Origin: Candidatus Anstonellaceae archaeon
GTDB lineage: Archaea; Micrarchaeota; Micrarchaeia; Anstonellales; Anstonellaceae
Assembly: GCA_038887295.1 (NCBI GenBank)
Contig: JAWAKW010000001.1
Span: 173,668-237,667, forward strand
Length of the DNA: 64,000 bases
Direction of reading: 5' to 3'
The translations under genes were made by a program, and so were the position numbers. This document shows, piece by piece, positions 3,816 through 64,000 of the stretch; the first letter of the stretch is position 1; every line of letters starts with the position of its first letter. The notes beneath the pieces were generated by a model. It was not told the origin of the DNA. It did no database searches and saw only the letters and a program-made list of their open reading frames with translations.

Positions 3816-4337
3816 TCAGTACTGCAAGCTTTTAACAAACCTCCTAAAGTGTTGCAAATAGCGCCTCATGTGGTGTTCTTGTTCAGATTGCGACATTTTT
3901 GCAAGCTCATAAGAAAGTCTCATAATTTCATAGTATGCCTCACCAAAGGCGGCATCTGAAGTTATTTCATCTTGGCTTGCTATTGAGGTTGCCTCGCACA
4001 GGTCGGCCAAATACTTAAGCTGCTCCAAAGCCTCTCTCCCTTTTTTAGTCAGCTTTAGGCGCTTCCTTGCTGTCAAGCGCTTTCGGATTGCAGAAAAAAG
4101 CATGACAAGATAATAGTATATTTGGTGCAAAATCGTCATTTTGGTTTCTGTCTGCCGCTGGACCGTAAGATCCACAACTATTGGTGCATAGGTTTCCTGC
4201 GGAACTATAAGAAGCGCCTCTGCTTTGGGATCAACAAAGCGTTCATCCATCAACCTGCCAAACTGGTGCCTTCTCCTTTCAACTGGTCCTTCTGGCTTTT
4301 TGAGAATTGGCTGAGGCTCCTGGAAAATCTGTTCCAT
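3816..4337 (-). CDS. hypothetical protein, possibly a PadR/winged-helix-like regulator
   Basis: 173-aa ORF with a basic helix segment KRLKLTKKGREALEQL; it is convergent with island gene 1. Confidence 0.3.
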   Translation of the reverse strand: MEQIFQEPQPILKKPEGPVERRRHQFGRLMDERFVDPKAEALLIVPQETYAPIVVDLTVQRQTETKMTILHQIYYYLVMLFSAIRKRLTARKRLKLTKKGREALEQLKYLADLCEATSIASQDEITSDAAFGEAYYEIMRLSYELAKMSQSEQEHHMRRYLQHFRRFVKSLQY

Positions 4338-4367
4338 ACTGGTCGCTGCTTTTATTTTTGTGTCAAG

Positions 4368-4378
4368 ATTTATATAAT
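4368..4378 (+). promoter_or_regulatory. archaeal TATA box for island gene 1 (leaderless start at 4401)
   Basis: TTTATATAA lies about 25-30 nt upstream of the ATG at 4401, the spacing typical of archaeal leaderless transcripts. Confidence 0.5.
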
Positions 4379-4400
4379 TGATTTTTCACGAAATACACTT

Positions 4401-7400
4401 ATGTTCAAACAAGAAAACACCTCTGTCTATTTTTCTAAAACAACCACACCATATTACTTTACTAGCCTAAACAACTATAAGGAAACACTTAAGGGAACTT
4501 CTAATATAACCATCGGCTTAATTAAAGTAAAAGAAGGAACTCTCAAAGAGATTCTCCAGCTACGTAATTCGTTTGGTTTTACAGAAGATCAAATCAAATC
4601 TTTGGTACCTTTTGGGACTCCTGATAGATCTGCTCCAACAAACATAATTGAAAGCAAAGATTATCTTTTACAAAAATATGGTGATTCCTACAGGATTTTT
4701 AAAAAAAATGTAGATCCTGTAGAAAGCCTCCAAAATGCGCTTTCTCCTTGGCAGATAAAAATAGATAAAGATGTTGCATCTCAAATCGTCAACAACTTAA
4801 TTTCTACAAAAGGAAAAGATTATTCAATAGGCGTTCAATCAAATGGTAAGGATTATGTACTTCGCTTCTCTTCTTTAAGTAATGGAACAACTTATTCTCT
4901 AAGTGTTTTTGAAACAAATATCCTCACAGAACAAATGCGAACTGAGATTGTTTCAAACTTTGAAAATTTTGAAAATCACTATAACTCAAATCCTGATTTC
5001 AAGAAGAAATGGGATAACTTTGCTTTGCTTAGGCCATTTCTTGTTGAAAAGATTATCACAGGAATGCAAAGTGAGATGAGAGAAATTTTTAGAACTTTTT
5101 CAGAAGGTCTTAATCATCACATCATTGCTGAGATCAACAAACCAATAATAACTGAAGGAATCGTTGGTTATGAACAAAAGAATTTGAACCTAAAAAGCAA
5201 TGGTAATTACTATGATATTGAGTTTTTGTCTTCACCAAATATTAAAGCTTTTGAAAATGATCTAAAAAAATATGGATTCAAAGAAGACGAAATCAAAAAA
5301 GCCAAAAAGCTTGACGAAACCACTATTTATTACCTCAATAATAGACCCTATCGTTATTACAAGCACGGTTATTATGAAATAAGAAACGACGGTCAAAGTT
5401 CATTTATTGCACAAAGGACAAAGGAGGGAGAATATGAGCTTATCTTAAGGATTAAGAAATCATACCTGGATGATAACAAGACCCTTAAACTGGGGGACTG
5501 GACTATTAGCAAGGCACAAAAAGATAGTGCAACCTTGAAAATCCCAATTTACGGCCAAAAAGAGGAACCTAACTTTTTCAAAAAGAACATTGAGGCCCAC
5601 ACACTTTATATTAGACCTTTAGATCCTAACTCAATCAAGCAGCTAGAGAAAGAAGGTGTAATATTTGAAGGAGAAGATCTAAAAACAATTGAACAGCTCT
5701 TATACAACTTATTAAAACCTTCTATGTTCGATTATTTATTAAGAAATAAGATCAAAACCGCAATCTCAAACATTAAAGATCCAAAATACGGCTTTTGGGA
5801 TATTGATAGTGGTGATTCTAGATTACAGATTAAAAAAATAGAACAGGGTAGAAAATTCCAAATAATAGATAAGCTTTTAATAGGAAAACAAATCGAAAAT
5901 GGAAGGCTTATAGGAAGCTTCCAATATAATGTTTCAGAAAAAAACGGCCGCGTCTGGCTTTCAACCTATCGTTATAGCGGGCTTTACTATTTAGATCCTT
6001 ATGCTATTGGAATGTTTTCTACTGCTGTCAAAGGATTTGTAGAAGGATTAAGCGGAATAGTTACAGATCCTATTGAATTTTTCTTACCTTTTTTGAAAAG
6101 ACCAAATGCTGTTGTCGAAAATGCAGTAAAGAACCCTACGCCTGAAAATATACGAAATGCAGCTTTCGCGTTGGATATGTGGATGGTAGATTCACTCTTG
6201 ACATCAACAGGATATGGTATAGTTATAAGCAAGGCCGCTTTAAAAGTTGTTGGACGGAGCCTTTCAAAAGCAACCTTAAGAAAGTTAGGTGAAAAGATAA
6301 CTAATGGGGGTATAATAGATAATCTTGCAAACCACCATGATGAAATCTTCAAAATTTTGATGGATACCAATCTAAAAAATGGGTCGTCAGTAGATAATAT
6401 AATAATCAAGTACGTCGGCGAGGATATATATCGTAAAGATCCAATCCAAGCGATCCAGAAGTTTTTTGATTCTCCTGACCCTCTTTTGATGCCTTTGAAA
6501 AGAGAAGTAGCAGAAGCACTCGGTGTCGATCTCACATTTTCTAATCTTGCCAAAGGAGCTGCAACAGCTGTATCTAAAACTGTGACTAATGTTGAAAGAT
6601 ATGCAAAACCCCTCCATCATTATTTAGACGATTGGACAGAACACGTCGCACAAAAGTTGCTTAGCGTTGACAAACAAGAGTTTTTACAGATAGATTTCTT
6701 ACCTTCTATTCAGTCATCCCTTGAGAAACTTCTAAAAAATAAACTGCAGAATCTAAAGATTGATATCAGCGAAATTTTGTCAAGAAAAGAAGTTCTTGAT
6801 GCGTATGAAAAAGCACTCAATTCTCTAAGTGCAGAAGATATTATAGAATATCTGAATGCAATTAAAAAGGAACTAATCAAAGAACTCAAAAATTTGAAAG
6901 CAGATAAAGAAATTATTGACTACGTTGAAAAAGGCATCACTTCTCCTCAGATAACAGGCAGGCCATTAGGCTCTGTTGGGCGGAAATTAACTGCGGAAGG
7001 TGCTCTCCTAGGTGAAATGTTAGAGGATATCATGCTGAAAGCGCAAATCAAAAGGCGTCTAATAAGCTCATTAAAAGACATTAGTGAGGAAGAAATCGGC
7101 CGTCAGGTAGATAATGTTTGTAAGAACATTAATTCTTGGAAAAGCAAGGAAGATTACATTAACCAATTCAAACAACATGTCAAAAACCTTGATGGAGTAA
7201 GCAAACAAATAATAGATGCAGTAAATTCTCTCAAACCACAAGAGATTCAAATCATTCCCATGGGTGCTCTTGTTTCAAAACAAGCAATTAAAAAAACTAA
7301 AAATTTACCCAGTAGTAGTGGAAAGCCTCAATTCCTCAATAGTATTCAAGATGCAAAAGACTCATACTCAATCCATATGTTTGGGGATGAACAAATCTTG

Positions 7401-8423
7401 CTTGGCTCACTTGCAAAGAAGGCAGATAAACTCGTCGACCTTCCAAACGAAATTATAAAAATGGAAGAATATCTTGCAAGATTCGTAGGCTTAAAAGACA
7501 GTCGCATTCTTAGGTTTATGAATGAAGACGATTTTATCTCCACTTTAAATAAAACTAAATATTCAGAAAAATACAAAGAATATTTAATAAAATCGTTTAA
7601 AGACCTTCGAGATCGATATATTCAATACACCTCAGGTAATTCTATAAGCGAAGCTTTCTTTATCGATTGCTCTTCCTTTGTTCAAAAAATGAAGAAAGCA
7701 AAGAATTTCAATTTCTTGAAGAATAGGAATCGACTGCAAACTATTATGCATGAACATCTATTCGATGCGATGAACGCAGTAAACGCTTATACAAGACGCC
7801 AAGAACTTATACAAAGTTTCATAAGTAAAATGGATGAGGCCAAAATTGAATTTAACAAGCAAATAAGAGACAAACTAGAAAAAGGGATAATCTCAGGTGA
7901 AGAACTAAAGAAGCTAGAAGATGAGATCATAAATAAGATAACTACTAATCAACAGTTGCAGCAAACACTCTCTGAGATCAGGAAACTCTCACTACAAATC
8001 GATTCATTTATCAAGGATACCATGTCGTATAAGTTCTTTAAACTCATGACTGATCTAGAATCATTCAGCAAAGTCGTGTCAGCTGTTATTAAGATCGGCA
8101 ACTCTATCTTCAAGAGTAGTAAAGAATTTTCCACCTTAATAAATAACTATCCCGAGCTTAAGATAACCATTATGGGATTAGTAATGTCAGAATATATAGA
8201 AGCATTATCGCAAAAAAAAGTCCCCCCAATTGACGATCTCATTAGAAATGCAAACGGACAAGTTTCCTCTCCAACTATCCTAAATAAACGCGGAGCCAAA
8301 TCTACAATACCAGAAGAATTGGAAACTCCAGAAGAATTGGAAACTAAAAATTCAGGTCAAGGTGAATCGAAAAGAATAGATATAGATCCCAATCAGAATA
8401 AATATCTAAAACCAGATTTTTAA
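4401..8423 (+). CDS. giant ORFan protein 1 (1340 aa), N/K-rich with a long coiled-coil region in its second half
   Basis: Long uninterrupted frame. The start was placed at the ATG at 4401 because the upstream extension in the ORF track overlaps the convergent gene 3816..4337 and a TATA box sits at -28. There is no signal peptide, no P-loop, and no family I recognise. Confidence 0.75.
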   Translation: MFKQENTSVYFSKTTTPYYFTSLNNYKETLKGTSNITIGLIKVKEGTLKEILQLRNSFGFTEDQIKSLVPFGTPDRSAPTNIIESKDYLLQKYGDSYRIFKKNVDPVESLQNALSPWQIKIDKDVASQIVNNLISTKGKDYSIGVQSNGKDYVLRFSSLSNGTTYSLSVFETNILTEQMRTEIVSNFENFENHYNSNPDFKKKWDNFALLRPFLVEKIITGMQSEMREIFRTFSEGLNHHIIAEINKPIITEGIVGYEQKNLNLKSNGNYYDIEFLSSPNIKAFENDLKKYGFKEDEIKKAKKLDETTIYYLNNRPYRYYKHGYYEIRNDGQSSFIAQRTKEGEYELILRIKKSYLDDNKTLKLGDWTISKAQKDSATLKIPIYGQKEEPNFFKKNIEAHTLYIRPLDPNSIKQLEKEGVIFEGEDLKTIEQLLYNLLKPSMFDYLLRNKIKTAISNIKDPKYGFWDIDSGDSRLQIKKIEQGRKFQIIDKLLIGKQIENGRLIGSFQYNVSEKNGRVWLSTYRYSGLYYLDPYAIGMFSTAVKGFVEGLSGIVTDPIEFFLPFLKRPNAVVENAVKNPTPENIRNAAFALDMWMVDSLLTSTGYGIVISKAALKVVGRSLSKATLRKLGEKITNGGIIDNLANHHDEIFKILMDTNLKNGSSVDNIIIKYVGEDIYRKDPIQAIQKFFDSPDPLLMPLKREVAEALGVDLTFSNLAKGAATAVSKTVTNVERYAKPLHHYLDDWTEHVAQKLLSVDKQEFLQIDFLPSIQSSLEKLLKNKLQNLKIDISEILSRKEVLDAYEKALNSLSAEDIIEYLNAIKKELIKELKNLKADKEIIDYVEKGITSPQITGRPLGSVGRKLTAEGALLGEMLEDIMLKAQIKRRLISSLKDISEEEIGRQVDNVCKNINSWKSKEDYINQFKQHVKNLDGVSKQIIDAVNSLKPQEIQIIPMGALVSKQAIKKTKNLPSSSGKPQFLNSIQDAKDSYSIHMFGDEQILLGSLAKKADKLVDLPNEIIKMEEYLARFVGLKDSRILRFMNEDDFISTLNKTKYSEKYKEYLIKSFKDLRDRYIQYTSGNSISEAFFIDCSSFVQKMKKAKNFNFLKNRNRLQTIMHEHLFDAMNAVNAYTRRQELIQSFISKMDEAKIEFNKQIRDKLEKGIISGEELKKLEDEIINKITTNQQLQQTLSEIRKLSLQIDSFIKDTMSYKFFKLMTDLESFSKVVSAVIKIGNSIFKSSKEFSTLINNYPELKITIMGLVMSEYIEALSQKKVPPIDDLIRNANGQVSSPTILNKRGAKSTIPEELETPEELETKNSGQGESKRIDIDPNQNKYLKPDF

Positions 8424-8464
8424 ATATTGATTGAAATATTGAATAAATGTGAAGAGGTGTTCAT

Positions 8465-11035
8465 ATGAATCAAAACACACAACAAAAATCTGTCAATCAT
8501 ATTGATGAATTTAATAGATATGCCAATTGGTGTATGTCCTTTTCTACTAAATATGGCAATTCTTTCAGGAAAGAAGGAGACAATATTGAAATAGTTGATA
8601 ACAGAACTGAAAGCAATAAAATACAGATAACAAAAAAAGAAATCGGAGACTTATTTTATAATTTCAAGCAAGTCAAATATCATTTTGACCAACTTACCAA
8701 ACAAGGTCTAAATAACGAAGAAATCAAGGAGTTATTCTCTACTCTAGAACTATGGAAGTATTTCTTCTTTGGCAACCTACCGTGGGATACTGATCACAAA
8801 GCCAAAGATGTAATTTCCTCATTTCAAAACATGAAAGATCTTTTTATGTATAAAACTTGGGTAACAGAATTCAAAGGTGCAAAAAATGACCAAGACAAAA
8901 TAAATCTTTGGTACAATATCAAAAAGGTTTTCAACTTGGCAGATAAGCATGTGAAGGATAAAAACTCTACTGTTGAATCTCTCTCTAATCAAGTCTATAA
9001 TGATATAATTAAAGATGTTGAGAAAATCAAAAATAGATATTTTAAAGGTCTTGATTTAAACACATTACATAATGAGAAAGAAAAAATCATAGATTCATAT
9101 AATAAATCCGTAATAGCTTCTTCTCCGACAAGCAAAAAGACCAATCAACCAGCACCCTCAAATATAGTGCTAACAGCAGAGCAAATATACAAACAAAATA
9201 AATACCTCCAAGCAGCAGCAACAGTCGATTTCGATAATGCCCCAAATGCAACAAGAAGACTCTTGGTTTCATCAGGTCTTCTTACTGAAGAACAGTTGGA
9301 AAAACCAAATGAGACCATTCAAGCAATATTTACTTCGTTTTATACCATGAAGCTTGTTAGAGAAGAAAACGCTACAAAAAAGACGATACAACTTCTCAAA
9401 TCCATCATGGAAAAGGACGGGGTTGAAATCACCCCGGAAAACATCCTCAAATATCTATGGAACGAACAAGAACAAAGATCAAGGCTTGCCGCAGCGATGG
9501 TAGGCCAGCAAATTGGCAATAAAAAAGTAAGTCAAGGAAATGCAAAGTGGTGGGAAGGCATATTTAAGATAGTCTATGAGCGTTCTGGGGCAACTCAAGT
9601 GCAAGTTCCGACTCTCCAAAGTGAGCATAATGCTCTTCTTCGCCAGGCAGAAGAGCTCATTAACAATGCAACAGACTACCAAAAGCAGCAGCCAGCATTC
9701 CAATCTCTCAACACTATTTACCAGGCAAATAAAGATTTATCTCCAACAGACATTACACAAGAGACAAATAATGCACTCAAGAATGCGATTGAAGAAGCCA
9801 AAAAGGCCCCACTTTCTCCTGAACAGAAGTTAGAGGCCCAGTCTCAGAAGCGACAGCTCAATGTCATTTATTCCTACAACAACGAGTTTGCCAATATAGA
9901 TCATCCATTGGCAAAGCACCTTCACAAAGAGTTACAAAAAGATACAGGCTATTTTTCAATCATAGCATCATCTCTGTACCGAAAGATAGATCAAGAAAGT
10001 ATAGCGGCAGCATCTATAATAGCAGAAGATTATGTAAATGCAGTCAAGTCAAACATTCAATTTTTTGCAAAGTTTTATGACCAGTCAAAGTCTTTCGGAG
10101 AGAACGTAGTTCAATATTACAGAAATCTTCAAGTATTAGATTTGATTTCATTGCTTGGAAAAAGAGTGCCAATTGATAATCAAGGCAATACCGCACTTTA
10201 TACTACCACAAGCTATTTCATTGATATGGGTTATATAAAGAAAGAAGGTGAAAAATTTGTTGCAACAGATGACGCCCCGCAATTGCTTAAAAATATGATG
10301 AAAAGAGGATCTTTGGTAGGAACCGCAGAGCAAATACTAAATCAAGACGCATTTGAGATCCTTGCGCATTTTGGTCTTGCAACTATTGACAAGAAAGGCA
10401 AAGTGAGTCTGGATGAAGCAGCATTAAATAAGCTCTCCAACGAAGAGCAAGAGATACTAAAGAACTTTGTAAATAAGTACAACTCTGACAAAACAGTTGC
10501 AATATACGAAAGTGAGCCAGGCAAGTCTTCGCCCGCAGAAGTTATGGTTAAGCTTGTAAAAAGTTATATTCAACCTTCACCAGAAAATATTACTGAAAGA
10601 AAAGAAACAACAACTACTCAAACGCCTCCCACAAAGAAAGAAGAACAACCAACAACTCCACCACAGCCCACCCCTCAGCCACCCATCACAGGCGAAAAAC
10701 CTGAGAGCACGCAATTACCACCAGAACAGACGAGAATAATAATTGGAGATGCTTGGTTCGAAAGTAACGAAGCCAGCACTTATAGATATAATAATGAATT
10801 CCAAAACATAAGAGGTTTGGAGAAAATACATGAGATACTAAGCAAACAGTGGGGTGAGCTTGTAAATCAAGTCAAACAGAAGCTTGGAAACGATGAAGTT
10901 CTAACTTTGCAAAAAATCCAGAATTTTGTCAATACTGTAATATCTGATGACATGCTAAAATCCTATTCTCAAAGTTATTTAACTAATATAAATTCTCTAT
11001 CTAATTACATTGCAGCTATGGAGATTAGAAAATAG
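8465..11035 (+). CDS. giant ORFan protein 2 (856 aa) with a Thr/Pro/Gln-rich linker
   Basis: GAGGTG Shine-Dalgarno 6 nt upstream of the ATG and a 41-nt gap after gene 1 indicate an operon. The low-complexity TTTTQTPPTKKEEQPTTPPQPTPQPP segment lies near the C-terminus. Confidence 0.75.
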   Translation: MNQNTQQKSVNHIDEFNRYANWCMSFSTKYGNSFRKEGDNIEIVDNRTESNKIQITKKEIGDLFYNFKQVKYHFDQLTKQGLNNEEIKELFSTLELWKYFFFGNLPWDTDHKAKDVISSFQNMKDLFMYKTWVTEFKGAKNDQDKINLWYNIKKVFNLADKHVKDKNSTVESLSNQVYNDIIKDVEKIKNRYFKGLDLNTLHNEKEKIIDSYNKSVIASSPTSKKTNQPAPSNIVLTAEQIYKQNKYLQAAATVDFDNAPNATRRLLVSSGLLTEEQLEKPNETIQAIFTSFYTMKLVREENATKKTIQLLKSIMEKDGVEITPENILKYLWNEQEQRSRLAAAMVGQQIGNKKVSQGNAKWWEGIFKIVYERSGATQVQVPTLQSEHNALLRQAEELINNATDYQKQQPAFQSLNTIYQANKDLSPTDITQETNNALKNAIEEAKKAPLSPEQKLEAQSQKRQLNVIYSYNNEFANIDHPLAKHLHKELQKDTGYFSIIASSLYRKIDQESIAAASIIAEDYVNAVKSNIQFFAKFYDQSKSFGENVVQYYRNLQVLDLISLLGKRVPIDNQGNTALYTTTSYFIDMGYIKKEGEKFVATDDAPQLLKNMMKRGSLVGTAEQILNQDAFEILAHFGLATIDKKGKVSLDEAALNKLSNEEQEILKNFVNKYNSDKTVAIYESEPGKSSPAEVMVKLVKSYIQPSPENITERKETTTTQTPPTKKEEQPTTPPQPTPQPPITGEKPESTQLPPEQTRIIIGDAWFESNEASTYRYNNEFQNIRGLEKIHEILSKQWGELVNQVKQKLGNDEVLTLQKIQNFVNTVISDDMLKSYSQSYLTNINSLSNYIAAMEIRK

Positions 11036-11104
11036 CGCATACATCCTAAAGAAATCTCGTGGAATTGATTAGCTTTATATTAATATTATATATAATTTAT
11101 AAAC

Positions 11105-13384
11105 ATGAATCAATACAAGCTAATCCAATCCAAAAATGAAACCATAAAGGATATTTTAGAAGGTATCAAAGATAAAAAAACCAAAGACGATGTCAAAAAT
11201 GTAATCAACAATATCAAAGATGATTACAAATATCTAAAAGATTTCCTTGTAGGTGTTTATCATCTCCAAAACTTTAATAGTATAATCCTATCCCTCATCA
11301 AGCTTTATGATAAAGATCCAAATAATTTTCGACAAAATATCGAGTATCTCCACTCAGTTTTGCTGCAAAAGGATATAAACAAATTTAGTGAAGAGTTAAG
11401 CTCTTTAACAACAAGCACCACTCAGATTTTAACAACAAGCAGCACTCAGATACCGCTGCCAAAGTCCGCTTCAAATTGGTATCTGATTGGTATGTCCCTT
11501 TTCTCTGACAAACCATTTTCTCCACGGTATTCTCCCATGCCACACAAACCTTCCAGAATATGGACACCTTTCGATCAGAGGATGCAACAGATTATGTACG
11601 GAGATTTAAATCAATCCTTCATCCAAGAATATAATGTTCAAGCATGGCCCTTCCAACTTGATTTTCCAGAGCGATATCTAAATCTTTTTAGACCTACTCG
11701 TGTGAGATATCCATTTTTAGTTACTGGATATTTCACGGGAGGAAGTCTCGTGAATCTTAATTTTAACTCAGGTAATATTGATACATTTTCTCTTATAGAT
11801 ACTGCTCACTTAGTCACAGGAGTGAATGTTCTCAAAAATAAATTAATCATAAATCAAGCAGCCATAGCCTTTAAAATGCTTCAAGGAACAACTTCTCTAT
11901 CACGTATTGAAAGGCACACGGATTTATCATCTAAACTGGATCTGCTTTTTAGGAATGGGGAAAAAACTACAGGTCAAATGCTTGTATTCCTTGAAAATAA
12001 ACGTTATGGCATACTCCAAGGCTACTATTACGACGGCAAAAGCTGGTTTGCATCAGATTTGGTCATGAGAGATGGAAAAATCATCTCTGGTGGAACAGCC
12101 CAAGGCGTTCTTCAGGGAGATTCTTTGGCAGGTTTATTTAATTACAATAAGCTAGGTGAGAATGACACTTTCTACGTAGTGCTTTACTCTAATTCTTTGG
12201 GGGCAGGTGTTGAAGCACAACAAAACACCAACCAAAAGCTAATCTCTTTCTTGAAGAATCTGGACGATTTTTCAGTTGAAGTCGGAGTCTTCTCTTTAGA
12301 GAGAGGCTATTTCGGTCAAGATGTTGATAAAGCTCAAGGTGGTATAATTGGGTTTGGCAACCAAAACTTTCATGTTTCTACATTTGTCGGTTCAGAGCAT
12401 TCTGAAGTTAATATACTTGGACTTGCAGCTGCTGCACAACGCACTGCAGCATCATTTTTCATAAGAAAAAATGAGGAAGGGGATATCACTCACGGAAATA
12501 TCAACCTTTCTACTTCTAAAAAGATAGGAAATACCACAATAACTTTTTCATCAAGAGTGAAAGGCTCTAAAAGAAGCACAGAGGGCCAAGGAGCTATCGA
12601 GGTTAGAATAGGAGAGGACGCAGATGCAACTATCATCAGATTTGGTTATGATGGTATCAGTCAGGTCGATTTCTTCAAGCGGTCTGCAAACTTCTTTAAT
12701 AGCCAAAATATAACAGACACAAGAAGCCTCATCAACGCAATCAATGCTCTTCTTTTAGTTACGCCCCTCGAAAACTTTCCTTATCCCTTAGCACAAGTGG
12801 AAATTGAAAAGGATGGAGGAAGAATCACATTATCCAAGTTAAAAGAAGGAGGAAGCGGATTCTCCTACGAAATAAAAGATTTTATGGGCATGAAAAAAGC
12901 ATTTTCCTCATTAGCTTTGACACCAAAGGGCAAAATCCTTAATTTAGGGTTTGATGTTGACCATAATAATCAACTAGTATTGCAAGTAGGCAACAAGAAT
13001 GTTGCTCTTGGCACCAGAGTAAAAATCGGAGAAGGTAAAATAGTCGGATCGGCTGGATGGGAACAAGGTTCTTTTAAGACCACTTTTGGATATAGTGAGA
13101 AATTAGGAGATACATCTGTTGAATCGGCTATGGTTACAGGTAAAAGTCCACAAGGTAACTATTGGGGGGGCCAGCTTAATATTTCTTATAAGATTGATGA
13201 TAATGTAAATCTTGGAGGTTCTGTTGGAGTTCTAAAGTTCAATAATATCACATACTTTTCAGCTGGCAGCAACTTTAAGATCAAGAATGACTGGGGGGAA
13301 TTCCAAGCGGGATTTGTCTTTATGTTCTCGAAAATTTCACCCCTCAACTATTTCTTCTCTATCAATTATGGCTCTAGAAAATAG
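11105..13384 (+). CDS. giant ORFan protein 3 (759 aa) with a beta-rich, beta-barrel-like C-terminal half
   Basis: The C-terminal roughly 400 aa show alternating hydrophobic/Gly-Ser-Asn-Thr patterning (GSVGVLKFNNITYFSAGSNFKIKNDWGEFQAGFVFMF). An AT-rich TATA-like stretch lies immediately upstream. Confidence 0.75.
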   Translation: MNQYKLIQSKNETIKDILEGIKDKKTKDDVKNVINNIKDDYKYLKDFLVGVYHLQNFNSIILSLIKLYDKDPNNFRQNIEYLHSVLLQKDINKFSEELSSLTTSTTQILTTSSTQIPLPKSASNWYLIGMSLFSDKPFSPRYSPMPHKPSRIWTPFDQRMQQIMYGDLNQSFIQEYNVQAWPFQLDFPERYLNLFRPTRVRYPFLVTGYFTGGSLVNLNFNSGNIDTFSLIDTAHLVTGVNVLKNKLIINQAAIAFKMLQGTTSLSRIERHTDLSSKLDLLFRNGEKTTGQMLVFLENKRYGILQGYYYDGKSWFASDLVMRDGKIISGGTAQGVLQGDSLAGLFNYNKLGENDTFYVVLYSNSLGAGVEAQQNTNQKLISFLKNLDDFSVEVGVFSLERGYFGQDVDKAQGGIIGFGNQNFHVSTFVGSEHSEVNILGLAAAAQRTAASFFIRKNEEGDITHGNINLSTSKKIGNTTITFSSRVKGSKRSTEGQGAIEVRIGEDADATIIRFGYDGISQVDFFKRSANFFNSQNITDTRSLINAINALLLVTPLENFPYPLAQVEIEKDGGRITLSKLKEGGSGFSYEIKDFMGMKKAFSSLALTPKGKILNLGFDVDHNNQLVLQVGNKNVALGTRVKIGEGKIVGSAGWEQGSFKTTFGYSEKLGDTSVESAMVTGKSPQGNYWGGQLNISYKIDDNVNLGGSVGVLKFNNITYFSAGSNFKIKNDWGEFQAGFVFMFSKISPLNYFFSINYGSRK

Positions 13385-13405
13385 AATTGATTGTTCTTCT
13401 AAAAA

Positions 13406-16507: not shown

Positions 16508-17191
16508 CTAAATTTTGTTGAGCACTTCCTTTATTTTCGGAACCTCCATTGAAGTGATTATTACAGGTATCTGCTCTCGCTCTGCTATCTTTATTGCAAG
16601 TGGGTCAACCTCCTTTATCCCGTGGAGGACCACCACCGAAGGCTTCATGGGAGTCACCCTAATCACCACCATCGGGCTCCTCCCTGTGGAAACCTGGGTA
16701 AATATAAATGCCCTCTCTGACATTGTCCCATAAAGCTTTGGAAATTGGCTGTAGGGCATCTCCAAAATTATCTTCAAACTCTCCATCAAGGTGTATCCAT
16801 AAAGCTTTTTGACCTTCATCAGCTCCTCGTTTGCCACCACGCTTCCGCCTATCAGCTTTTGGAAATCAATTGCAGAGATGCTAGTTGCAAATTCATGAAG
16901 CTCAAAATACTGATCGGTTTTGTCTGCCCCCTGAAGCAGCTTGGACAATATAGGGCTTCCGCGCTCCAAATCGATTTGGATAAGCGCATTTACGAATCTT
17001 TTTATTACCCCTGAGCCAGGCGACTTGCGCCGGTTTCCTTCATAGTCGCTTATAGTCGAAGGTGAAATTTTCAGCACAGAAGCAAGCTCTGCTTGGGTAA
17101 TTGCAAATATCTCTCTCCATTTTTTCATGGTGGAGCCGGGTGTAGGACTGAGAGTTATTTCCCCTGCTATCTCGTTTTTGAGTTTTTCCAT
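16508..17191 (-). CDS. HTH (XRE-like) transcriptional regulator with a C-terminal ligand-binding-like domain
   Basis: N-terminal HTH ([21 protein letters not shown]); archaeal COG3620-like architecture. Confidence 0.5.
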
Positions 17192-21102: not shown

Positions 21103-22221
21103 ATGCCTTTTATTATTTACCTTCTAAGTAGCCTTATGGCACAAAAAAAGGCAAGGCAGGCAAGCTTGGCAGAAAGTCAAGAGGACAAGCCAGACCATGT
21201 GGATGCTTTGGTGGCAAAGGCTTTTGACTCCGACCCATCGGTGCGGCTGCAGGTTGCGCGCGAGCTTGGGAAAATAGATGACCCGCGGGCAGTATTTGCC
21301 CTTATTGAGCTTTCCTCAGACAAAGACGAGCAGGTGCGCCAGGCAGCACAGCAGTCGCTGGACAATTTCAAGGATGAAGAAAAAGAAGCAATTGTTTCGC
21401 TTGAGAAGCTTCTTGCAGAGCGCAAGGAATCCACCCAGCAGCAGCCTACTTCTTCTTCCAAAGTTTCGCAGCTGATGGCGCCCACTATCGAAAAGCTGTT
21501 TTCCCATTACGAGCCGCAAAAAAGGGAATCTGTCAAAAGGAAGCTTTTTCCTTCCCTTCAAAAGCTATTTGGCTTTTCCAAGCAGGATTTGGATCCGCTT
21601 CAGGGGTTGGACAAGATAGGCACAGTTGAAAAGGAAGAGACTCCAAGGGAGGAGTCAAAGCCCCAAAATGCATCTAATTTCCCAATCGGGCAGCACCAGG
21701 AGCCAGCACTTCCACAAAGAGAAGAAACGCCAGCAAAGGAGGAAGAGCTGGAAGAAGCCCCGGTTGAGCAAGGAAGGCTTTTTGAGATTGCATACAAACT
21801 TGCAACTACTCCGGGAATTGGAAAAGCGGATCTTAAGCGCGAGCAAAACAGGTTGCTCTCGAACTTCAAAAAAGAGCTTTCGCTTGCGTTCAAGATGGCA
21901 GCTGCAAAAGCAGCACAGGAAGGCCTTACAAGCTTTTCTGGCCTCAAGCCAGGGATGAAAAATCTATCCTTTGCAGAAATGCAGATAGTTTCAATCTCTG
22001 ATGCAGAACATCAGGAAGGGGTAAAAAGGAAGCCTTATGCAAAAATCAGGCTTACAGATGGGCACAAAGAGCAGGCGGTGCTGGTTCCTCACGAGAGAGC
22101 AGCAGGACTAAAGCCACAAGACAAAATCATCCTGAAAAATGTTTCAGTGGATTTCCTTGTTGAAACCCAAGAAGTAGTCCTGCTCGTCAAGCCAAAAAGC
22201 AAAATCCTTTTAGTCAAGTAG
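21103..22221 (+). CDS. HEAT-repeat protein with a Glu/Pro-rich linker and a C-terminal OB-like domain
   Basis: HEAT-type repeats (DSDPSVRLQVARELGKIDDPRAVFALIELSSDKDEQVRQAAQQSL); an acidic low-complexity middle region. Confidence 0.5.
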   Translation: MPFIIYLLSSLMAQKKARQASLAESQEDKPDHVDALVAKAFDSDPSVRLQVARELGKIDDPRAVFALIELSSDKDEQVRQAAQQSLDNFKDEEKEAIVSLEKLLAERKESTQQQPTSSSKVSQLMAPTIEKLFSHYEPQKRESVKRKLFPSLQKLFGFSKQDLDPLQGLDKIGTVEKEETPREESKPQNASNFPIGQHQEPALPQREETPAKEEELEEAPVEQGRLFEIAYKLATTPGIGKADLKREQNRLLSNFKKELSLAFKMAAAKAAQEGLTSFSGLKPGMKNLSFAEMQIVSISDAEHQEGVKRKPYAKIRLTDGHKEQAVLVPHERAAGLKPQDKIILKNVSVDFLVETQEVVLLVKPKSKILLVK

Positions 22222-22953
22222 CCTATCCTGCTCTTTCATCAGCCTTTTTACTTTTGCAATCCTTTTGAGCAAAGATGGGTGGGCGCTCAAAGACAAAAGA
22301 TTTACGATCTTTTCAGCCAGTCTTGCGTTTTCCCAGAACTTTTCAAGCACTTCCAGCAGCTCTTTCCCATAACCCATCATTACTGCAAAGCGGTCAGCTT
22401 GGTATTCCTCTTTGCGTATCTTGATTTTTTTTGCATGCAAACGCTTCAGCAAGTCAAAAAAGCATGAGGCAAATTCTATCATTCCGCACGCTTTTTGAGA
22501 TATGTTGCCCCTCCAACATCGGCGTATTGCATTTTCAAGCCGCTTAAAGCTCAATAAAATCTCCAAATTTTCATCATCGTTTTTGTCGCCCAAACCTATG
22601 TGTCCAATCTCATGAGCTATAACTGCAAGAAGCTGCCCGTCATTTGCTTCCTTCAGCAAAGGGGTGCTGAGGAAAATGTTCATACTTTTTGAAGTAAATG
22701 CATTCCATCTGGAGTCCTCAAAGCTCAAAAAGAATATTTCTTCTGCTTTTGCCTCCTGTAGCATCTTTTGAATCTCTGCAAGGATTTGCGGGCGATCTTT
22801 GGCGAGGTTTACAATGCTTACGCCAACTGCAGAAGGAACAGCCCTTATTCCATCGGCCTCCAATATAGGTATTTTCTTCCATTTATTTTCTCCTCTTGGC
22901 AAAGTTGGCTGCTTGCAAGAGGCGCTCTGAAGTGACTGGTTTGGCTTTTGCAT
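22210..22953 (-). CDS. zinc metalloprotease (HExxH, M48/HtpX-like soluble form)
   Basis: Motif AHEIGHIGLGD plus a downstream Glu. Confidence 0.5.
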   Translation of the reverse strand: MQKPNQSLQSASCKQPTLPRGENKWKKIPILEADGIRAVPSAVGVSIVNLAKDRPQILAEIQKMLQEAKAEEIFFLSFEDSRWNAFTSKSMNIFLSTPLLKEANDGQLLAVIAHEIGHIGLGDKNDDENLEILLSFKRLENAIRRCWRGNISQKACGMIEFASCFFDLLKRLHAKKIKIRKEEYQADRFAVMMGYGKELLEVLEKFWENARLAEKIVNLLSLSAHPSLLKRIAKVKRLMKEQDRLLD

Positions 22954-26902: not shown

Positions 26903-26964
26903 CGAAAACCGCAACAGAGACAAAAAAGCCTCACCCCTTGCTTCAAGACGCTCCATTCTTTATT

Positions 26965-28577
<1,613 letters not shown>

Positions 28578-51755: not shown

Positions 51756-53210
51756 ATGGGAAGCCAAAAGAAAGAATACTGCGGGGTATTTGGCATATAC
51801 TCATTTTCCTCAAGCGAGATTGCACACCAAATATACTTGGGCCTGATGAACCTCCAGCATCGAGGCCAGGATTCAGCAGGAGCTGCAACCTCTGATGGAA
51901 AGGAGCTTTTCAGCATAAAAGGGCTGGGGCTAGTTTCCGATATCTTCACGCCAGAGTCCATAAAGAGCCTCAAAGGGTTTGCAGGAATAGGACATGTGCG
52001 CTACCCAACAATTGGTGCAGGTGGCGTCGAGGATGCCCAGCCATTCGTGGCTTCTTTGGGGAACAAGTCATTTGCGCTTGCCCACAATGGCAATCTTTCA
52101 AACTATGGCAAAGTGCGAAAAGAAATGGTGCAACAAGGTCATAAATTCAGCTCAAGCTGCGACGCAGAGCTTATCTTGGCAGTCTTTGTGCAAGCTTACA
52201 AAAAGCACAATGATTGGTTTTTGGCAATACAGGAGCTGATGAAGAAGTTGGATGGAGCATATTCTGTTGTTATCGTAAGCAACCAAGGTGAGCTTGCAGC
52301 ATTTCGCGACCCTCTTGCGATCCGGCCGCTATGCTTTGGCAGAAGCAAGGAAGAAATCGTCTTTGCCTCAGAGTCGGTAGCCCTTGATATAGTCTCATGC
52401 AAACTCGAAGGCGATTTGCAGCCGGGTGAAGTCGTCTTGGTTTCTCCTGCTGGCATCAAAAGAAAGCAATTAGCAGGAAAATCCCAACCCAAGCACTGCA
52501 TGTTTGAATATGTCTATTTTTCTCGCCCAGACTCAAAATTGGATGGAAGATGGGTCTATGAAGTTCGCTATAAGCTTGGGAAGGCGCTTGCAAAGGCAGC
52601 ACCAGTTAAAGCAGACATCGTGGTGCCAGTACCAGACACTGCAAGAAGCGCCGTAGAAGGATATTCTGCAGAAAGCGGAATTCCGGTTGCAGAAGGGCTG
52701 ATTAAAAATAGGTATGTTGGCCGGACATTTATCATGCCTTCGCAGCAAAAGAGGGCAGATGCTGTGCGGCTCAAGCTGAATGCGGTGCGAAACATACTCG
52801 AAGGGAAAAGGGTGGTGCTTATAGATGATTCAATAGTGAGGGGCACCACTATGGGGCCAATAGTAAAGCTAGTGAGGGACGCAGGAGCAAAGGAGATACA
52901 CTTGAGAATCACCTGCCCTCCAATTATAGGCCCGTGTTTTTATGGCATCGACCTTCCAACATATAGTGAATTGGTGGCTGCAAACAAGAGTGTAGAAGAG
53001 ATAAGGAAAATGGTTGGTGCAGATTCCCTTGTTTATCAATCTGTGCAGGATTTAGTGGATGCAATAGGAATAGGGAAAGAAAACCTTTGCCTTGGATGCA
53101 TCACACAAAGGTATCCTACAGCTTTCGGCCAGAAGCTTTCAGAAAAAATGAAGCAAGCCCACAAAGAAGGCAAGGAAGGGGGAGTTCGTGTTTGGGAGGA
53201 GCAAAGCTGA
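51756..53210 (+). CDS. purF: amidophosphoribosyltransferase
   Basis: The N-terminal nucleophile CGVFGIY after a short propeptide, and a PRTase domain with C-terminal Fe-S cysteines (CLGCITQRYP). Confidence 0.85.
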   Translation: MGSQKKEYCGVFGIYSFSSSEIAHQIYLGLMNLQHRGQDSAGAATSDGKELFSIKGLGLVSDIFTPESIKSLKGFAGIGHVRYPTIGAGGVEDAQPFVASLGNKSFALAHNGNLSNYGKVRKEMVQQGHKFSSSCDAELILAVFVQAYKKHNDWFLAIQELMKKLDGAYSVVIVSNQGELAAFRDPLAIRPLCFGRSKEEIVFASESVALDIVSCKLEGDLQPGEVVLVSPAGIKRKQLAGKSQPKHCMFEYVYFSRPDSKLDGRWVYEVRYKLGKALAKAAPVKADIVVPVPDTARSAVEGYSAESGIPVAEGLIKNRYVGRTFIMPSQQKRADAVRLKLNAVRNILEGKRVVLIDDSIVRGTTMGPIVKLVRDAGAKEIHLRITCPPIIGPCFYGIDLPTYSELVAANKSVEEIRKMVGADSLVYQSVQDLVDAIGIGKENLCLGCITQRYPTAFGQKLSEKMKQAHKEGKEGGVRVWEEQS

Positions 53211-53517
53211 GCTTCATTCCAAGCCTTTCAGCCGCCTTAGAAGGCTTCTTTCGCACGGCAATCTCTGGATTTATATTCTTTCTCTAATGAAAAGGAAAAA
53301 AGTATATGCCTATGCTCTGCCTCAGCACATATTTTCGAAGTTCGGCTTTTTGCCATCTAAGCTTATGATATACTTTGTGCTTTATAAGCTGGAGTCAGAA
53401 GGCCTTATTGCATCTTCATTTGAGGAGAGGCGCAAATATTACGCACTTACAACTAAAGGCAAACAAGAACTTTTGAGAGCAAAAAAATTCCTTGCACAGC
53501 TTTCAAGGAGGCTTTGA
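53188..53517 (+). CDS. PadR-family transcriptional regulator
   Basis: The GNLWIYILSLMKRKKVYAYAL winged-helix signature. Confidence 0.65.
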   Translation: MFGRSKAELHSKPFSRLRRLLSHGNLWIYILSLMKRKKVYAYALPQHIFSKFGFLPSKLMIYFVLYKLESEGLIASSFEERRKYYALTTKGKQELLRAKKFLAQLSRRL

Positions 53518-54564: not shown

Positions 54565-54650
54565 TAGCCCCAATCGGATTCGAACCGATGTCCCGAGGTC
54601 TCTCCCGTCAGACCAGAGCCTCGTGTCCTTGACCACTAGACGATGGGGCT
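54565..54650 (-). tRNA. tRNA-Gln(CTG) with a 13-nt intron at the canonical 37/38 position
   Basis: Manual fold gives acceptor AGCCCCA/TGGGGCT (A1:U72 is typical of archaeal tRNA-Gln), D-arm GTCT-AGTGGTCAA-GGAC, anticodon stem CGAGG/CCTCG separated by 20 nt (loop CTCTGG plus intron TCTGACGGGAGAG plus A), and T-arm ATCGG-TTCGAAT-CCGAT. Confidence 0.7.
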
Positions 54651-58815: not shown

Positions 58816-58910
58816 GGGCCCGTAGTCGAATAGCCAAATCCAGGCTCGACAATGGTTAAGACGTCGCTCTTACACAGCGAAGATTCGCGGTTCGAATCCG
58901 CGCGGGCCCA
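58816..58910 (+). tRNA. tRNA-Val(TAC) with a 22-nt non-canonical intron in the D-loop
   Basis: Manual fold gives acceptor GGGCCCG/CGGGCCC, anticodon arm TCGCT-CTTACAC-AGCGA, variable AGATT and T-arm CGCGG-TTCGAAT-CCGCG. The stretch between nt 8 and 26 is 41 nt instead of 19, and removing AATAGCCAAATCCAGGCTCGAC (58829..58850) restores a normal D-arm. Confidence 0.7.
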
Positions 58911-63312: not shown

Positions 63313-63597
63313 ATGAAAATAAGCGAGCTTAAGCCTGGCACAAATGCAGACGTGGAAGGTGAAATTGTAAAATTGGAGCCTCCGCGGGACATAATCACAA
63401 AGTTCGGCAAGAAAACTCGTGTTGCAAATGCAACTCTCAAAGATGACAGCGGAGAAATTCTGCTTTCACTTTGGGACAAGGATGCAGATGCATTTGCAGA
63501 AGGCGACAGGGTAAGAGTAGAAAAAGGCTGGGTATCAGAATTTCGCGGAAACTTGCAGCTTTCTGCAGGCAGATCTGGGAAAATCACCAAGGTTTGA
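63313..63597 (+). CDS. OB-fold single-stranded nucleic-acid-binding protein (short SSB/RPA-like)
   Basis: About 95 aa with a typical OB pattern (VEGEIVKLEPPRDIITKFGKKTRVANATLKDDSGEILLSLWDKDA). Confidence 0.5.
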   Translation: MKISELKPGTNADVEGEIVKLEPPRDIITKFGKKTRVANATLKDDSGEILLSLWDKDADAFAEGDRVRVEKGWVSEFRGNLQLSAGRSGKITKV

Positions 63598-63628
63598 TTT
63601 GTGTTAGAAAATGGATAAGTTAATATCG

Positions 63629-63668
63629 TGTTAACATATATTTAAAAATGTTAATTCTATATTAACAT
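63629..63668 (+). promoter_or_regulatory. palindromic putative operator upstream of the thermosome gene
   Basis: A perfect 8-nt palindrome TGTTAACA (63629-63636) and the inverted repeat ATGTTAAT-N5-ATTAACAT (63648-63668) share the half-site TGTTAA. They lie 50-90 nt upstream of the thermosome ATG, with a GAGGTGAT Shine-Dalgarno at -11. Confidence 0.45.
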
Positions 63669-63719
63669 CTGCTTGCAAAGCCGATTTTCTGCTCAATATT
63701 TTTGTGAGAGGTGATATAA

Positions 63720-64000
63720 ATGACTAAAGCACTTGAAGGACAGCAGGTAATGATACTCCCTGAAGGGAGCAACAGAGTAATTGGTAGGGATGCGCAAAGA
63801 ATAAACATAGCAGTCGCATATGCAGTTGCAAACATAGTCAGAACCACTCTTGGTCCAAAGGGAATGGACAAAATGCTGGTCTCTGAGCTTGGAGATATCG
63901 TTATTACTAACGATGGCGCAACTATTCTGGAAGAAATGAATGTCGAGCATCCCGCAGCAAAGATTATGGTAGAAATTGCCAAGACCCAAGACAAAGAGGT
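63720..64000 (+). CDS. ths: thermosome (group II chaperonin) subunit, N-terminal part; continues past the window end
   Basis: The N-terminus [19 protein letters not shown]...[13 protein letters not shown]...ITNDGATIL is the group II chaperonin signature. The frame is open at the window end, so the ORF track did not list it. Confidence 0.85.

Follow-up and report, generated by a model that had tools for sequence, protein, structure and literature searches.

The current analysis concerns a 64,000-nucleotide stretch (hereafter the window, in its full length) from a Candidatus Anstonellaceae archaeon of the Micrarchaeota, which ends shortly after the start of a gene for the thermosome, a group II chaperonin. 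The 122-bp intergenic region between an OB-fold gene and the thermosome gene carries O1 and O2, two copies of one 21-bp inverted repeat with the consensus tGTTAATA-N3-TATTAACa (16 sites collected), and the 52 bp at 63617-63668 constitute an operator-TATA-operator cassette. Judged from sequence comparison, this cassette very probably serves as operator for a chaperone regulon of the heat-shock type that regulates itself and has not been described before. The features of the locus are as follows.

63313-63597, + strand: OB-fold (Ssb/RPA-like) gene, with Pfam matches to tRNA_anti-codon, REPA_OB_2 and Ssb-like_OB.
63598-63616, no strand: block from the OB-fold stop codon to O1, about 90% conserved in the related loci L084 and L085.
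63617-63637, no strand: O1, AAGTTAAT-ATCGT-GTTAACAT, the upstream, imperfect copy; 23.2 bits with the position weight matrix.
63641-63648, + strand: predicted TATA box, TTTAAAAA, within the 14 bp between the operator cores; invariant in L084 and L085.
63648-63668, no strand: O2, ATGTTAAT-TCTAT-ATTAACAT, a perfect 8+8 inverted repeat; 24.6 bits with the matrix.
63669-63719, + strand: predicted 5' untranslated region (UTR), with a Shine-Dalgarno sequence, GAGGTGAT, at 63708-63715.
63720-64000, + strand: thermosome (group II chaperonin) gene, ATG at 63720; first 93 codons, truncated by the window end; Pfam Cpn60_TCP1, E 4e-27.

A preliminary description of this DNA had named a palindrome, TGTTAACA, and an inverted repeat, ATGTTAAT-N5-ATTAACAT, and both elements are present where it placed them, the former at 63629-63636 and the latter, with the spacer TCTAT, at 63648-63668. 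Its division of the region into a separate perfect palindrome plus one inverted repeat does not hold: there are instead two 21-bp sites bracketing the TATA box, and TGTTAACA is the right half-site of O1. In a mismatch-tolerant search (inverted repeats I1/I6), O1 departs from the inverted repeat at 2 of the 16 specified bases. The start-to-start distance between O1 and O2 is exactly 31 bp, or about three helical turns, which would place both sites on the same DNA face. The 14 bp separating the cores include ATATATTTAAAAAT; the right half of O1 abuts or overlaps the position of the TFB recognition element (BRE) just 5' of the TATA box, while O2 lies directly 3' of the TATA box and fills the interval up to the predicted transcription start. 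Elsewhere in the window, TTTAAAAA/TTTATATA boxes begin approximately 30 nt 5' of apparently leaderless start codons (PGM, HTH_3, dcd) or 40-50 nt 5' of start codons led by a Shine-Dalgarno sequence. From the TATA-to-start distance at these other promoters, we infer a thermosome transcription start at approximately 63669-63671, relative to which O2 would span roughly -22 to -2 and O1 roughly -53 to -33. The strong Shine-Dalgarno sequence noted in the preliminary description, GAGGTGAT, is likewise present, and its complement stands at the 3' end of the 16S gene in the window (...GATCACCTCC). The 93 thermosome residues within the window are identical to those of two homologues, P0001 and P0002, each 551 aa long. 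As far as can be seen, the OB-fold gene is a syntenic neighbor outside the regulon. The conserved block at 63598-63616 scores below 11 bits with the matrix, and it includes a half-site-like GTGTTAG at 63601-63607. Its role may be that of an additional half-site, or else transcription of the OB-fold gene may terminate there.

One alternative is an ordinary AT-rich promoter, in which a TATA box happens to be accompanied by chance palindromes with no dedicated regulator. The operator region is 74% A+T and its TATA box is plausible, both of which fit this view. The same can be said of a generic inverted-repeat test on the window's thermosome promoter alone, which was not significant (p 0.11). For the promoters of 28 other loci this test gave a weak result (5/28 at p <= 0.05), from which no general conclusion is drawn, the shuffle being possibly conservative. 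What speaks against chance is the rarity of the motif. The 64 kb contain two copies of the core GTTAA-N7-TTAAC, which are those of O1 and O2, 31 bp apart, whereas the mean in 300 Markov-3 simulations was 0.007 occurrences per 64 kb, and in none of them did two fall within 60 bp of each other. The sole GTTAAC in 64 kb is located in the operator region, and the other promoters of the window are without the motif. With a position weight matrix derived from the 16 collected sites, on which true sites score 21-30 bits, the window contains no further match of at least 11 bits. Apart from the true sites, none was found in L001, L084-L086, L088, L089, L064 or L208-L211 either, and 920 kb of other archaeal thermosome loci held a single match of at least 13 bits, which scored 14.7 bits. 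TGTTAA occurs 11 times in the window versus 36.8 expected from dinucleotides, a deficit due to a general avoidance of TTAA, and 4 of the 11 lie within the same 40 bp of the operator region. TTAA itself is strongly avoided throughout the window (344 observed on both strands versus 806 expected from dinucleotides), for which a restriction system or codon/stop constraints might be responsible.

Comparison with related loci adds a second line of evidence. L001-L003 were uninformative for footprinting, since these nearest contigs are 99% identical to the window. Two species-level relatives are more distant, namely L084 (GCA_026413765.1; thermosome 96% identical) and L085 (GCA_026414185.1; thermosome 92% identical), and both keep the SAHH-OB-thermosome synteny. 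O1 and O2 are both present in each, with the 31-bp spacing unchanged. The O2 half-sites GTTAAT and ATTAAC are invariant, whereas its spacer reads TCTAT in the window, ATTGT in L084 and ACTGT in L085; the O1 spacer reads ATCGT, ACCAT and ATGGT, respectively. When the three lineages are compared, variation is seen in 3 of 28 half-site columns and in 5 of 6 central columns (Fisher p = 0.0011), and the sequence immediately 3' of O2 diverges freely. Conserved half-sites around drifting centers are the classic footprint of a dimer-binding operator, and they speak against chance palindromes.

Further evidence for a regulon comes from a second operon. The preliminary description had proposed that the motif might recur before other chaperone genes, and it does: the double operator is found directly upstream of the gene for a candidate transcription factor (TF), the first gene of a TF-grpE-dnaK operon, in 5/5 Micrarchaeota loci (L095, L208, L209, L210 and L211). 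No site was found before hsp20 or AAA+ genes, a negative that reflects the lack of such genes in the stretches read. Two of these share their assemblies with a thermosome cassette, GCA_026413765.1 holding the cassette at the thermosome in L084 and at the TF operon in L211, and GCA_026414185.1 holding it in L085 and L210, respectively. The gene order is TF-GrpE-Hsp70 in L209, L210 and L211, TF-GrpE-(109-aa open reading frame (ORF))-Hsp70 in L208 and TF-GrpE in L095, with intergenic gaps of 5-60 bp. In L208-L211 the cassette reads [GTTAAT-N5-ATTAAC]-GCTTTTAAATCTTT-[GTTAAT-N5-ATTRAC], with one-base variants in some half-sites and starts 31 bp apart. The distance from its end to the start codon of TF is 9-15 nt in these four loci and 27 nt in L095. 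When the TF promoters are aligned, the cassette is the sole part that aligns, while the flanks do not. An identical cassette at an unrelated promoter in five loci, added to the rarity and the footprint described above, leaves a chance origin with extremely little probability. TF and thermosome genes also occur together in the window's lineage. The TF homologue P0246 (MEM4554660.1) and the thermosome P0002 (MEM4554480.1) are each encoded on a contig of 441,876 bp, by its length the same one, with their accessions 180 apart, and the TF homologue P0245 (MEM4348666.1) and the thermosome P0001 (MEM4347952.1) are both in GCA_038891035.1.

A metagenome collection was also scanned for the double site GTTAAT-N25-GTTAAT-N5-ATTAAC, which returned 118 stretches, most of them noise. 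The full cassette is present in two overlapping contigs, L095 and L114, in which the unconstrained positions too resemble Micrarchaeota sites, and these two are the only TF carriers among all 118. In L095 the cassette stands immediately 5' of a 147-aa winged helix-turn-helix (wHTH) ORF, followed by grpE (Pfam GrpE, E 4e-20). None of the first 80 double-site stretches (L090-L169) encodes a thermosome, OB-fold or SAHH relative. Three TF promoters also contain a weak third site 20 bp upstream of the first operator. In L211 and L095 this site lies on the side of the divergent gene, and L208 has a degenerate counterpart. Divergent to the TF-grpE-dnaK promoter is a gene for a conserved 186-190-aa protein (L208 7303-7863, L210 699-1259 and L211 5295-5867, all on the minus strand), for which no Pfam match was found and which is followed in L208 and L211 by a LonB protease gene. 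This divergent gene may share its operator region with the TF operon.

The scan also bears on the view that the sites are a mobile-element remnant or terminal repeat, or a replication-associated, iteron-like repeat. In L168, AT-rich DNA devoid of ORFs contains a tandem array of five CTGTTAAT-TTTTT-ATTAAC units, which would suit such an origin. The Micrarchaeota genomes show a different picture, with one pair only, fixed around a TATA box before chaperone genes, synteny on both sides, no extra copies in the approximately 140 kb examined and no transposase or replication genes adjacent. Of all the readings considered, this one is the least credible. The L168 array itself (434-590) has its units at 31 and 37 bp spacing in extremely AT-rich DNA, and could conceivably consist of iterons. 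In the bacterial-looking stretches L092, L107, L174 and L197 (e.g. L107 5737-5788), paired sites of the form GTGTTAAT-TTAAT-GTTAAC ... AGTTAAT-N5-ATTAACAC stand 31 bp apart just before the gene for a small secreted protein, which is probably an unrelated system of similar geometry. The L168 array and these four stretches were set aside as chance or unrelated double-site matches.

It is also conceivable that the element acts as RNA, either through a long O1-O2 hairpin or through an O2 stem-loop, and serves as an RNA thermometer, a processing site or a terminator of the OB-fold gene. Over 19 nt, O1 and O2 show 84% complementarity (I1), the stem they would form is part of the minimum-free-energy fold of 63598-63725, and by hand count the O1 and O2 spacers match at 10/15 positions as reverse complements versus 6/15 directly. 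The complementarity of O1 and O2 is automatic, though, because each site is itself palindromic, and the fold of 63598-63725 is no more stable than those of shuffled sequences (z -1.33). Moreover, the stems are all rich in A-U and G-U pairs with no U-tract following, the Shine-Dalgarno sequence lies 40 nt away and is unpaired, and the predicted 5' UTR has less structure than shuffled versions of it (z +1.5). Since the TATA box falls inside the "loop" of the hairpin, transcription is predicted to start 3' of the element, and in the TF promoters the cassette likewise encloses the TATA box and ends 9-27 nt before the ATG. The RNA-structure readings were rejected on the shuffle comparisons of the folds, and we regard them as very unlikely. 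A sigma-70/terminator scan found nothing near O1/O2, and such a scan is irrelevant to an archaeon.

The candidate regulator TF is an ArsR-type winged-helix protein of approximately 147 aa, matching Pfam HTH_5 (E 1e-5 to 2e-5) above the 22-bit cutoff, with sub-threshold matches to the TrmB and MarR wHTH families. No curated NCBIfam family covers it, the matches being far below cutoffs, and no HrcA domain was found in it with Pfam or NCBIfam. The family comprises about 110-150 clusters at 90% identity, and all source-named members with a phylum assignment are Micrarchaeota, Anstonellaceae included. Among 50 family members, the recognition-helix region has the consensus GINRITIIHHLKRLE, within which NRIT(I/V)IHH is nearly invariant, a degree of constancy that fits a conserved operator; much of the C-terminal part is conserved as well. 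An AlphaFold2 model (predicted local distance difference test score, pLDDT, 82.7) consists of a disordered N-terminus, a winged helix (helices 60-67 and 71-84, strands 87-90 and 93-96) and one 48-residue C-terminal helix, which is plausibly a coiled-coil dimerization element. The preliminary description had called for a phr-like wHTH gene. Such a wHTH gene does exist as the first gene of the operon and is encoded in the window's lineage, but it has no demonstrable homology to Phr or HSR1. In a phmmer search of the Protein Data Bank (PDB) with the L095 TF, the match to Phr (2p4w) was not significant (E 0.72); with the 50-member profile the best match was PH1932 (1uly; E 1.6e-4, helix-turn-helix (HTH) only), and Phr 2p4w reached E 0.11. 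Foldseek with the AlphaFold2 model returned generic MarR/ArsR/Sso10a folds, all with E > 0.001 and with 2p4w outside the top 50. By these comparisons, TF appears as a generic ArsR/MarR-type wHTH protein.

Two other genes were set aside. An HTH_5 gene about 10 kb 3' of the thermosome (L085 16420-17322; 300 aa, with a C-terminal ArsR HTH) was dismissed as the regulator because no operator lies nearby, despite its weak similarity to Phr (E 0.0011). A distant TF homologue (28% identity) is encoded in L064 (5426-5758, minus strand), which comes from an unclassified archaeon, and converges there on the thermosome gene, the leader of which contains a perfect AATACCA-N5-TGGTATT inverted repeat (L064 3620-3645); this homologue was excluded from the system for having no motif in common with it.

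Taken together, these results make it likely that an ArsR-type, autoregulated repressor controls the thermosome and Hsp70 systems through O1/O2-type cassettes. The preliminary description had suggested that the element could be the binding site of this lineage's heat-shock regulator, and the recurrence at TF-grpE-dnaK together with the wHTH gene supports this, with repression and the response to heat being the presumptive parts. Four components of the scheme are inferred: that TF is what binds, in which direction it regulates, where transcription starts and which stress is the signal. Firstly, each site would be bound by a dimer of the approximately 147-aa protein, as two dimers or a dimer of dimers, which would sandwich the TATA box from one DNA face. 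Secondly, occupancy of the BRE-proximal site and of the TATA-to-start interval would hinder the recruitment of TFB and RNA polymerase, such that the thermosome gene and the grpE-dnaK operon to which TF belongs would both be under its repression. Presumably, proteotoxic or heat stress would then free the operators, and the thermosome and the Hsp70 system would be induced together. The abutment of O1 on the BRE and the filling of the TATA-to-start interval by O2 make TF most likely a repressor, and the presence of the cassette at the TF operon's own promoter implies autoregulation. Archaeal regulators bound 3' of the TATA box repress. Precedents exist for both the mode and the position, as Phr is a palindrome-binding negative regulator (PMC10746257) and the HSR1 site CTAAC-N5-GTTAG lies downstream of the BRE/TATA (PMC2396416).

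Alternatively, the operator could be real and yet serve an activator or a dual-role factor, or be bound by some other protein, such as the PadR-family protein encoded at 53188-53517. The window does encode further small HTH proteins (PadR and HTH_3), the link between TF and the operator is one of guilt by association, and part of O1 reaches beyond the BRE on its 5' side, a location from which activation is known for some archaeal regulators; TrmBL1 is able to repress or activate (PMC4706686). Against this, O2 occupies the TATA-to-start interval, a classical repressing position exemplified by HSR1 (PMC2396416), and no copy of the motif was found near the PadR or HTH_3 genes of the window. In addition, the cassette directly precedes the ArsR-type gene in 5/5 loci, as autoregulation would have it. 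Negative feedback is the usual form of autoregulation. On balance, we consider an activator or a different binder unlikely, if less so than the alternatives already discussed, and we retain TF as the probable repressor.

Several points weigh against this repressor model and should be stated together. Comparative evidence is what underlies the proposed binding, repression and heat response. The partial location of O1 upstream of the BRE is an activating position in some archaeal systems. The TF promoters that were read are those of relatives (L095 and L208-L211), and the same-genome assignments rest on metagenome-assembled genomes. The operator was not found before the stress-type genes within reach, namely those for the HtpX-like M48 peptidase, S49 peptidase, PAC2 and inositol-1-phosphate synthase, and two target operons are known from the approximately 140 kb of these genomes examined. 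The cassette was also not found in L086, L088 or L089, whose thermosomes are 88-91% identical, and in 28 other Micrarchaeota/DPANN loci the DNA preceding the thermosome gene did not show the motif. Among the loci examined, the thermosome cassette is confined to a narrow clade with thermosomes at least 92% identical, which shows that membership in the proposed regulon turns over across a short evolutionary distance.

Two of the genes just named were considered as further targets and rejected, the HtpX-like M48 promoter having 5 mismatches in its best match and the inositol-1-phosphate synthase promoter having no site in L001, L084 or L085. The Pyrococcus orthologue of inositol-1-phosphate synthase is a Phr target. 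A few kb 3' of the thermosome gene, the relatives share a gene for inositol-1-phosphate synthase and one for a CDP-alcohol phosphatidyltransferase (L001 10843-12754, L084 15175-17095 and L085 13486-15438), and the pair could serve the production of inositol-based solutes or lipids. In L088 (thermosome 91% identical), an hsp20 gene at 2-118 lies directly upstream of the thermosome gene at 199-1866; a GC-rich hairpin stands between the two, and the GTTAAT/ATTAAC motif was not found there.

Other features of the window can be described briefly. The 16S rRNA gene (26964-28577, minus strand) measures 1614 nt against a 1478-position model, implying insertions; no 23S gene follows it within the window, and a cation-efflux gene adjoins it. 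An AT-rich island at 4000-13400 (GC about 35% versus about 46% elsewhere) contains three ORFs in a row, at 4122-8423 (1433 aa), 8465-11035 (856 aa) and 11105-13384 (759 aa). Two of the three were tested and had no Pfam match, and these ORFs may encode surface proteins or be horizontally acquired. Two tRNA genes, 54565-54650 (minus strand) and 58816-58910 (plus strand), are longer than usual at 86 and 95 nt, and ARAGORN gave no name to the former ("anticodon ctgg"); both are probably intron-containing archaeal tRNAs. The genes for the PadR-family regulator (53188-53517, plus strand), the HTH_3 protein (16508-17191, minus strand) and the HtpX-like M48 peptidase (22210-22953, minus strand) have no operator nearby.

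Heat-shock regulators are known for very few archaea, with Phr in the Thermococcales and HSR1 in Archaeoglobus, and none has been identified in the Crenarchaeota (PMC10746257). In the searchable literature, we found nothing on heat-shock regulators of DPANN archaea or on the regulation of archaeal dnaK operons, nor any description of the TF protein family or of the 21-bp motif, both of which are new. With the 21-bp motif, the approximately 147-aa family and the two target operons, a phylum that is uncultivated gains a regulator-operator pair defined concretely enough to be tested. The thermosome and TF-grpE-dnaK operons together cover the main folding machines, and they offer an example of a bacterial-origin Hsp70 system wired into archaeal transcription control.

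The key features of the proposed system can be compared with four known ones. In Bacillus subtilis and many other bacteria, HrcA binds CIRCE (TTAGCACTC-N9-GAGTGCTAA), and the chaperonin involved is GroESL. As in HrcA/CIRCE, the gene for the putative regulator comes first in an operon with grpE and dnaK, one and the same inverted-repeat operator stands before the dnaK operon and the chaperonin gene of one genome, and the circuit is presumably autoregulated. Unlike HrcA, TF is a 147-aa ArsR-type winged helix; unlike CIRCE, the operator is of the GTTAATA-N3-TATTAAC type, in two copies bracketing an archaeal TATA box, and the chaperonin is a group II thermosome rather than GroESL. Tentatively, and with the odds somewhat against it, one might suppose that the Micrarchaeota arrived by convergence at a feedback circuit like HrcA/CIRCE, with an archaeal ArsR-type wHTH protein encoded ahead of grpE-dnaK genes of bacterial origin, and that in the genus-level clade of the window the native thermosome promoter has acquired the portable cassette as well. 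If so, archaeal and horizontally acquired chaperone machines would share one stress signal, and either titration by chaperones or the melting of TF's long, conserved C-terminal helix might serve to sense it. The HspR system of Streptomyces and other Actinobacteria employs a MerR-family regulator encoded at the end of the dnaK operon and the HAIR element CTTGAGT-N7-ACTCAAG. It shares with the proposed system a regulator encoded within the dnaK operon and inverted repeats at the operon promoter, whereas TF is ArsR-type and encoded by the first gene.

Among archaea, Thompson and Daniels (1998) reportedly found that heat-shock control of cct1 in Haloferax volcanii depends on sequences immediately flanking the TATA box, and we know of no palindromic operator or dedicated repressor identified for that gene. 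The parallel to the present locus lies in the control of an archaeal chaperonin gene being tied to TATA-flanking sequences. Regulation of a haloarchaeal hsp gene has been attributed to general transcription factors (PMC2396416). In promoter architecture there is a resemblance to Phr of Pyrococcus furiosus and HSR1 of Archaeoglobus fulgidus, wHTH repressors that bind palindromes beside the TATA box, both at heat-shock genes and at the genes encoding them. As with HSR1, one operator, O2, lies downstream of the BRE/TATA and reaches the predicted start. The modeled TF resembles both proteins in its predicted wHTH and long C-terminal helix, and its best solved-structure matches, including PH1932, are ArsR-type. 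The differences are nonetheless substantial. TF has no significant similarity to Phr 2p4w (E 0.11-0.72), and its putative half-site differs in sequence and orientation (GTTAATA-N3-TATTAAC) from the HSR1 site CTAAC-N5-GTTAG (PMC2396416), no TAAC-N5-GTTA being found in 63598-63719. Two sites flank the TATA box instead of one downstream, the regulon seen consists of the thermosome and grpE-dnaK and not of hsp20 and an AAA+ ATPase, and the host lineage, Micrarchaeota, belongs to the DPANN. In its predicted working, the element resembles the Phr/HSR1 operators and CIRCE, whereas it differs from them in protein family, half-site, site number and regulon content.

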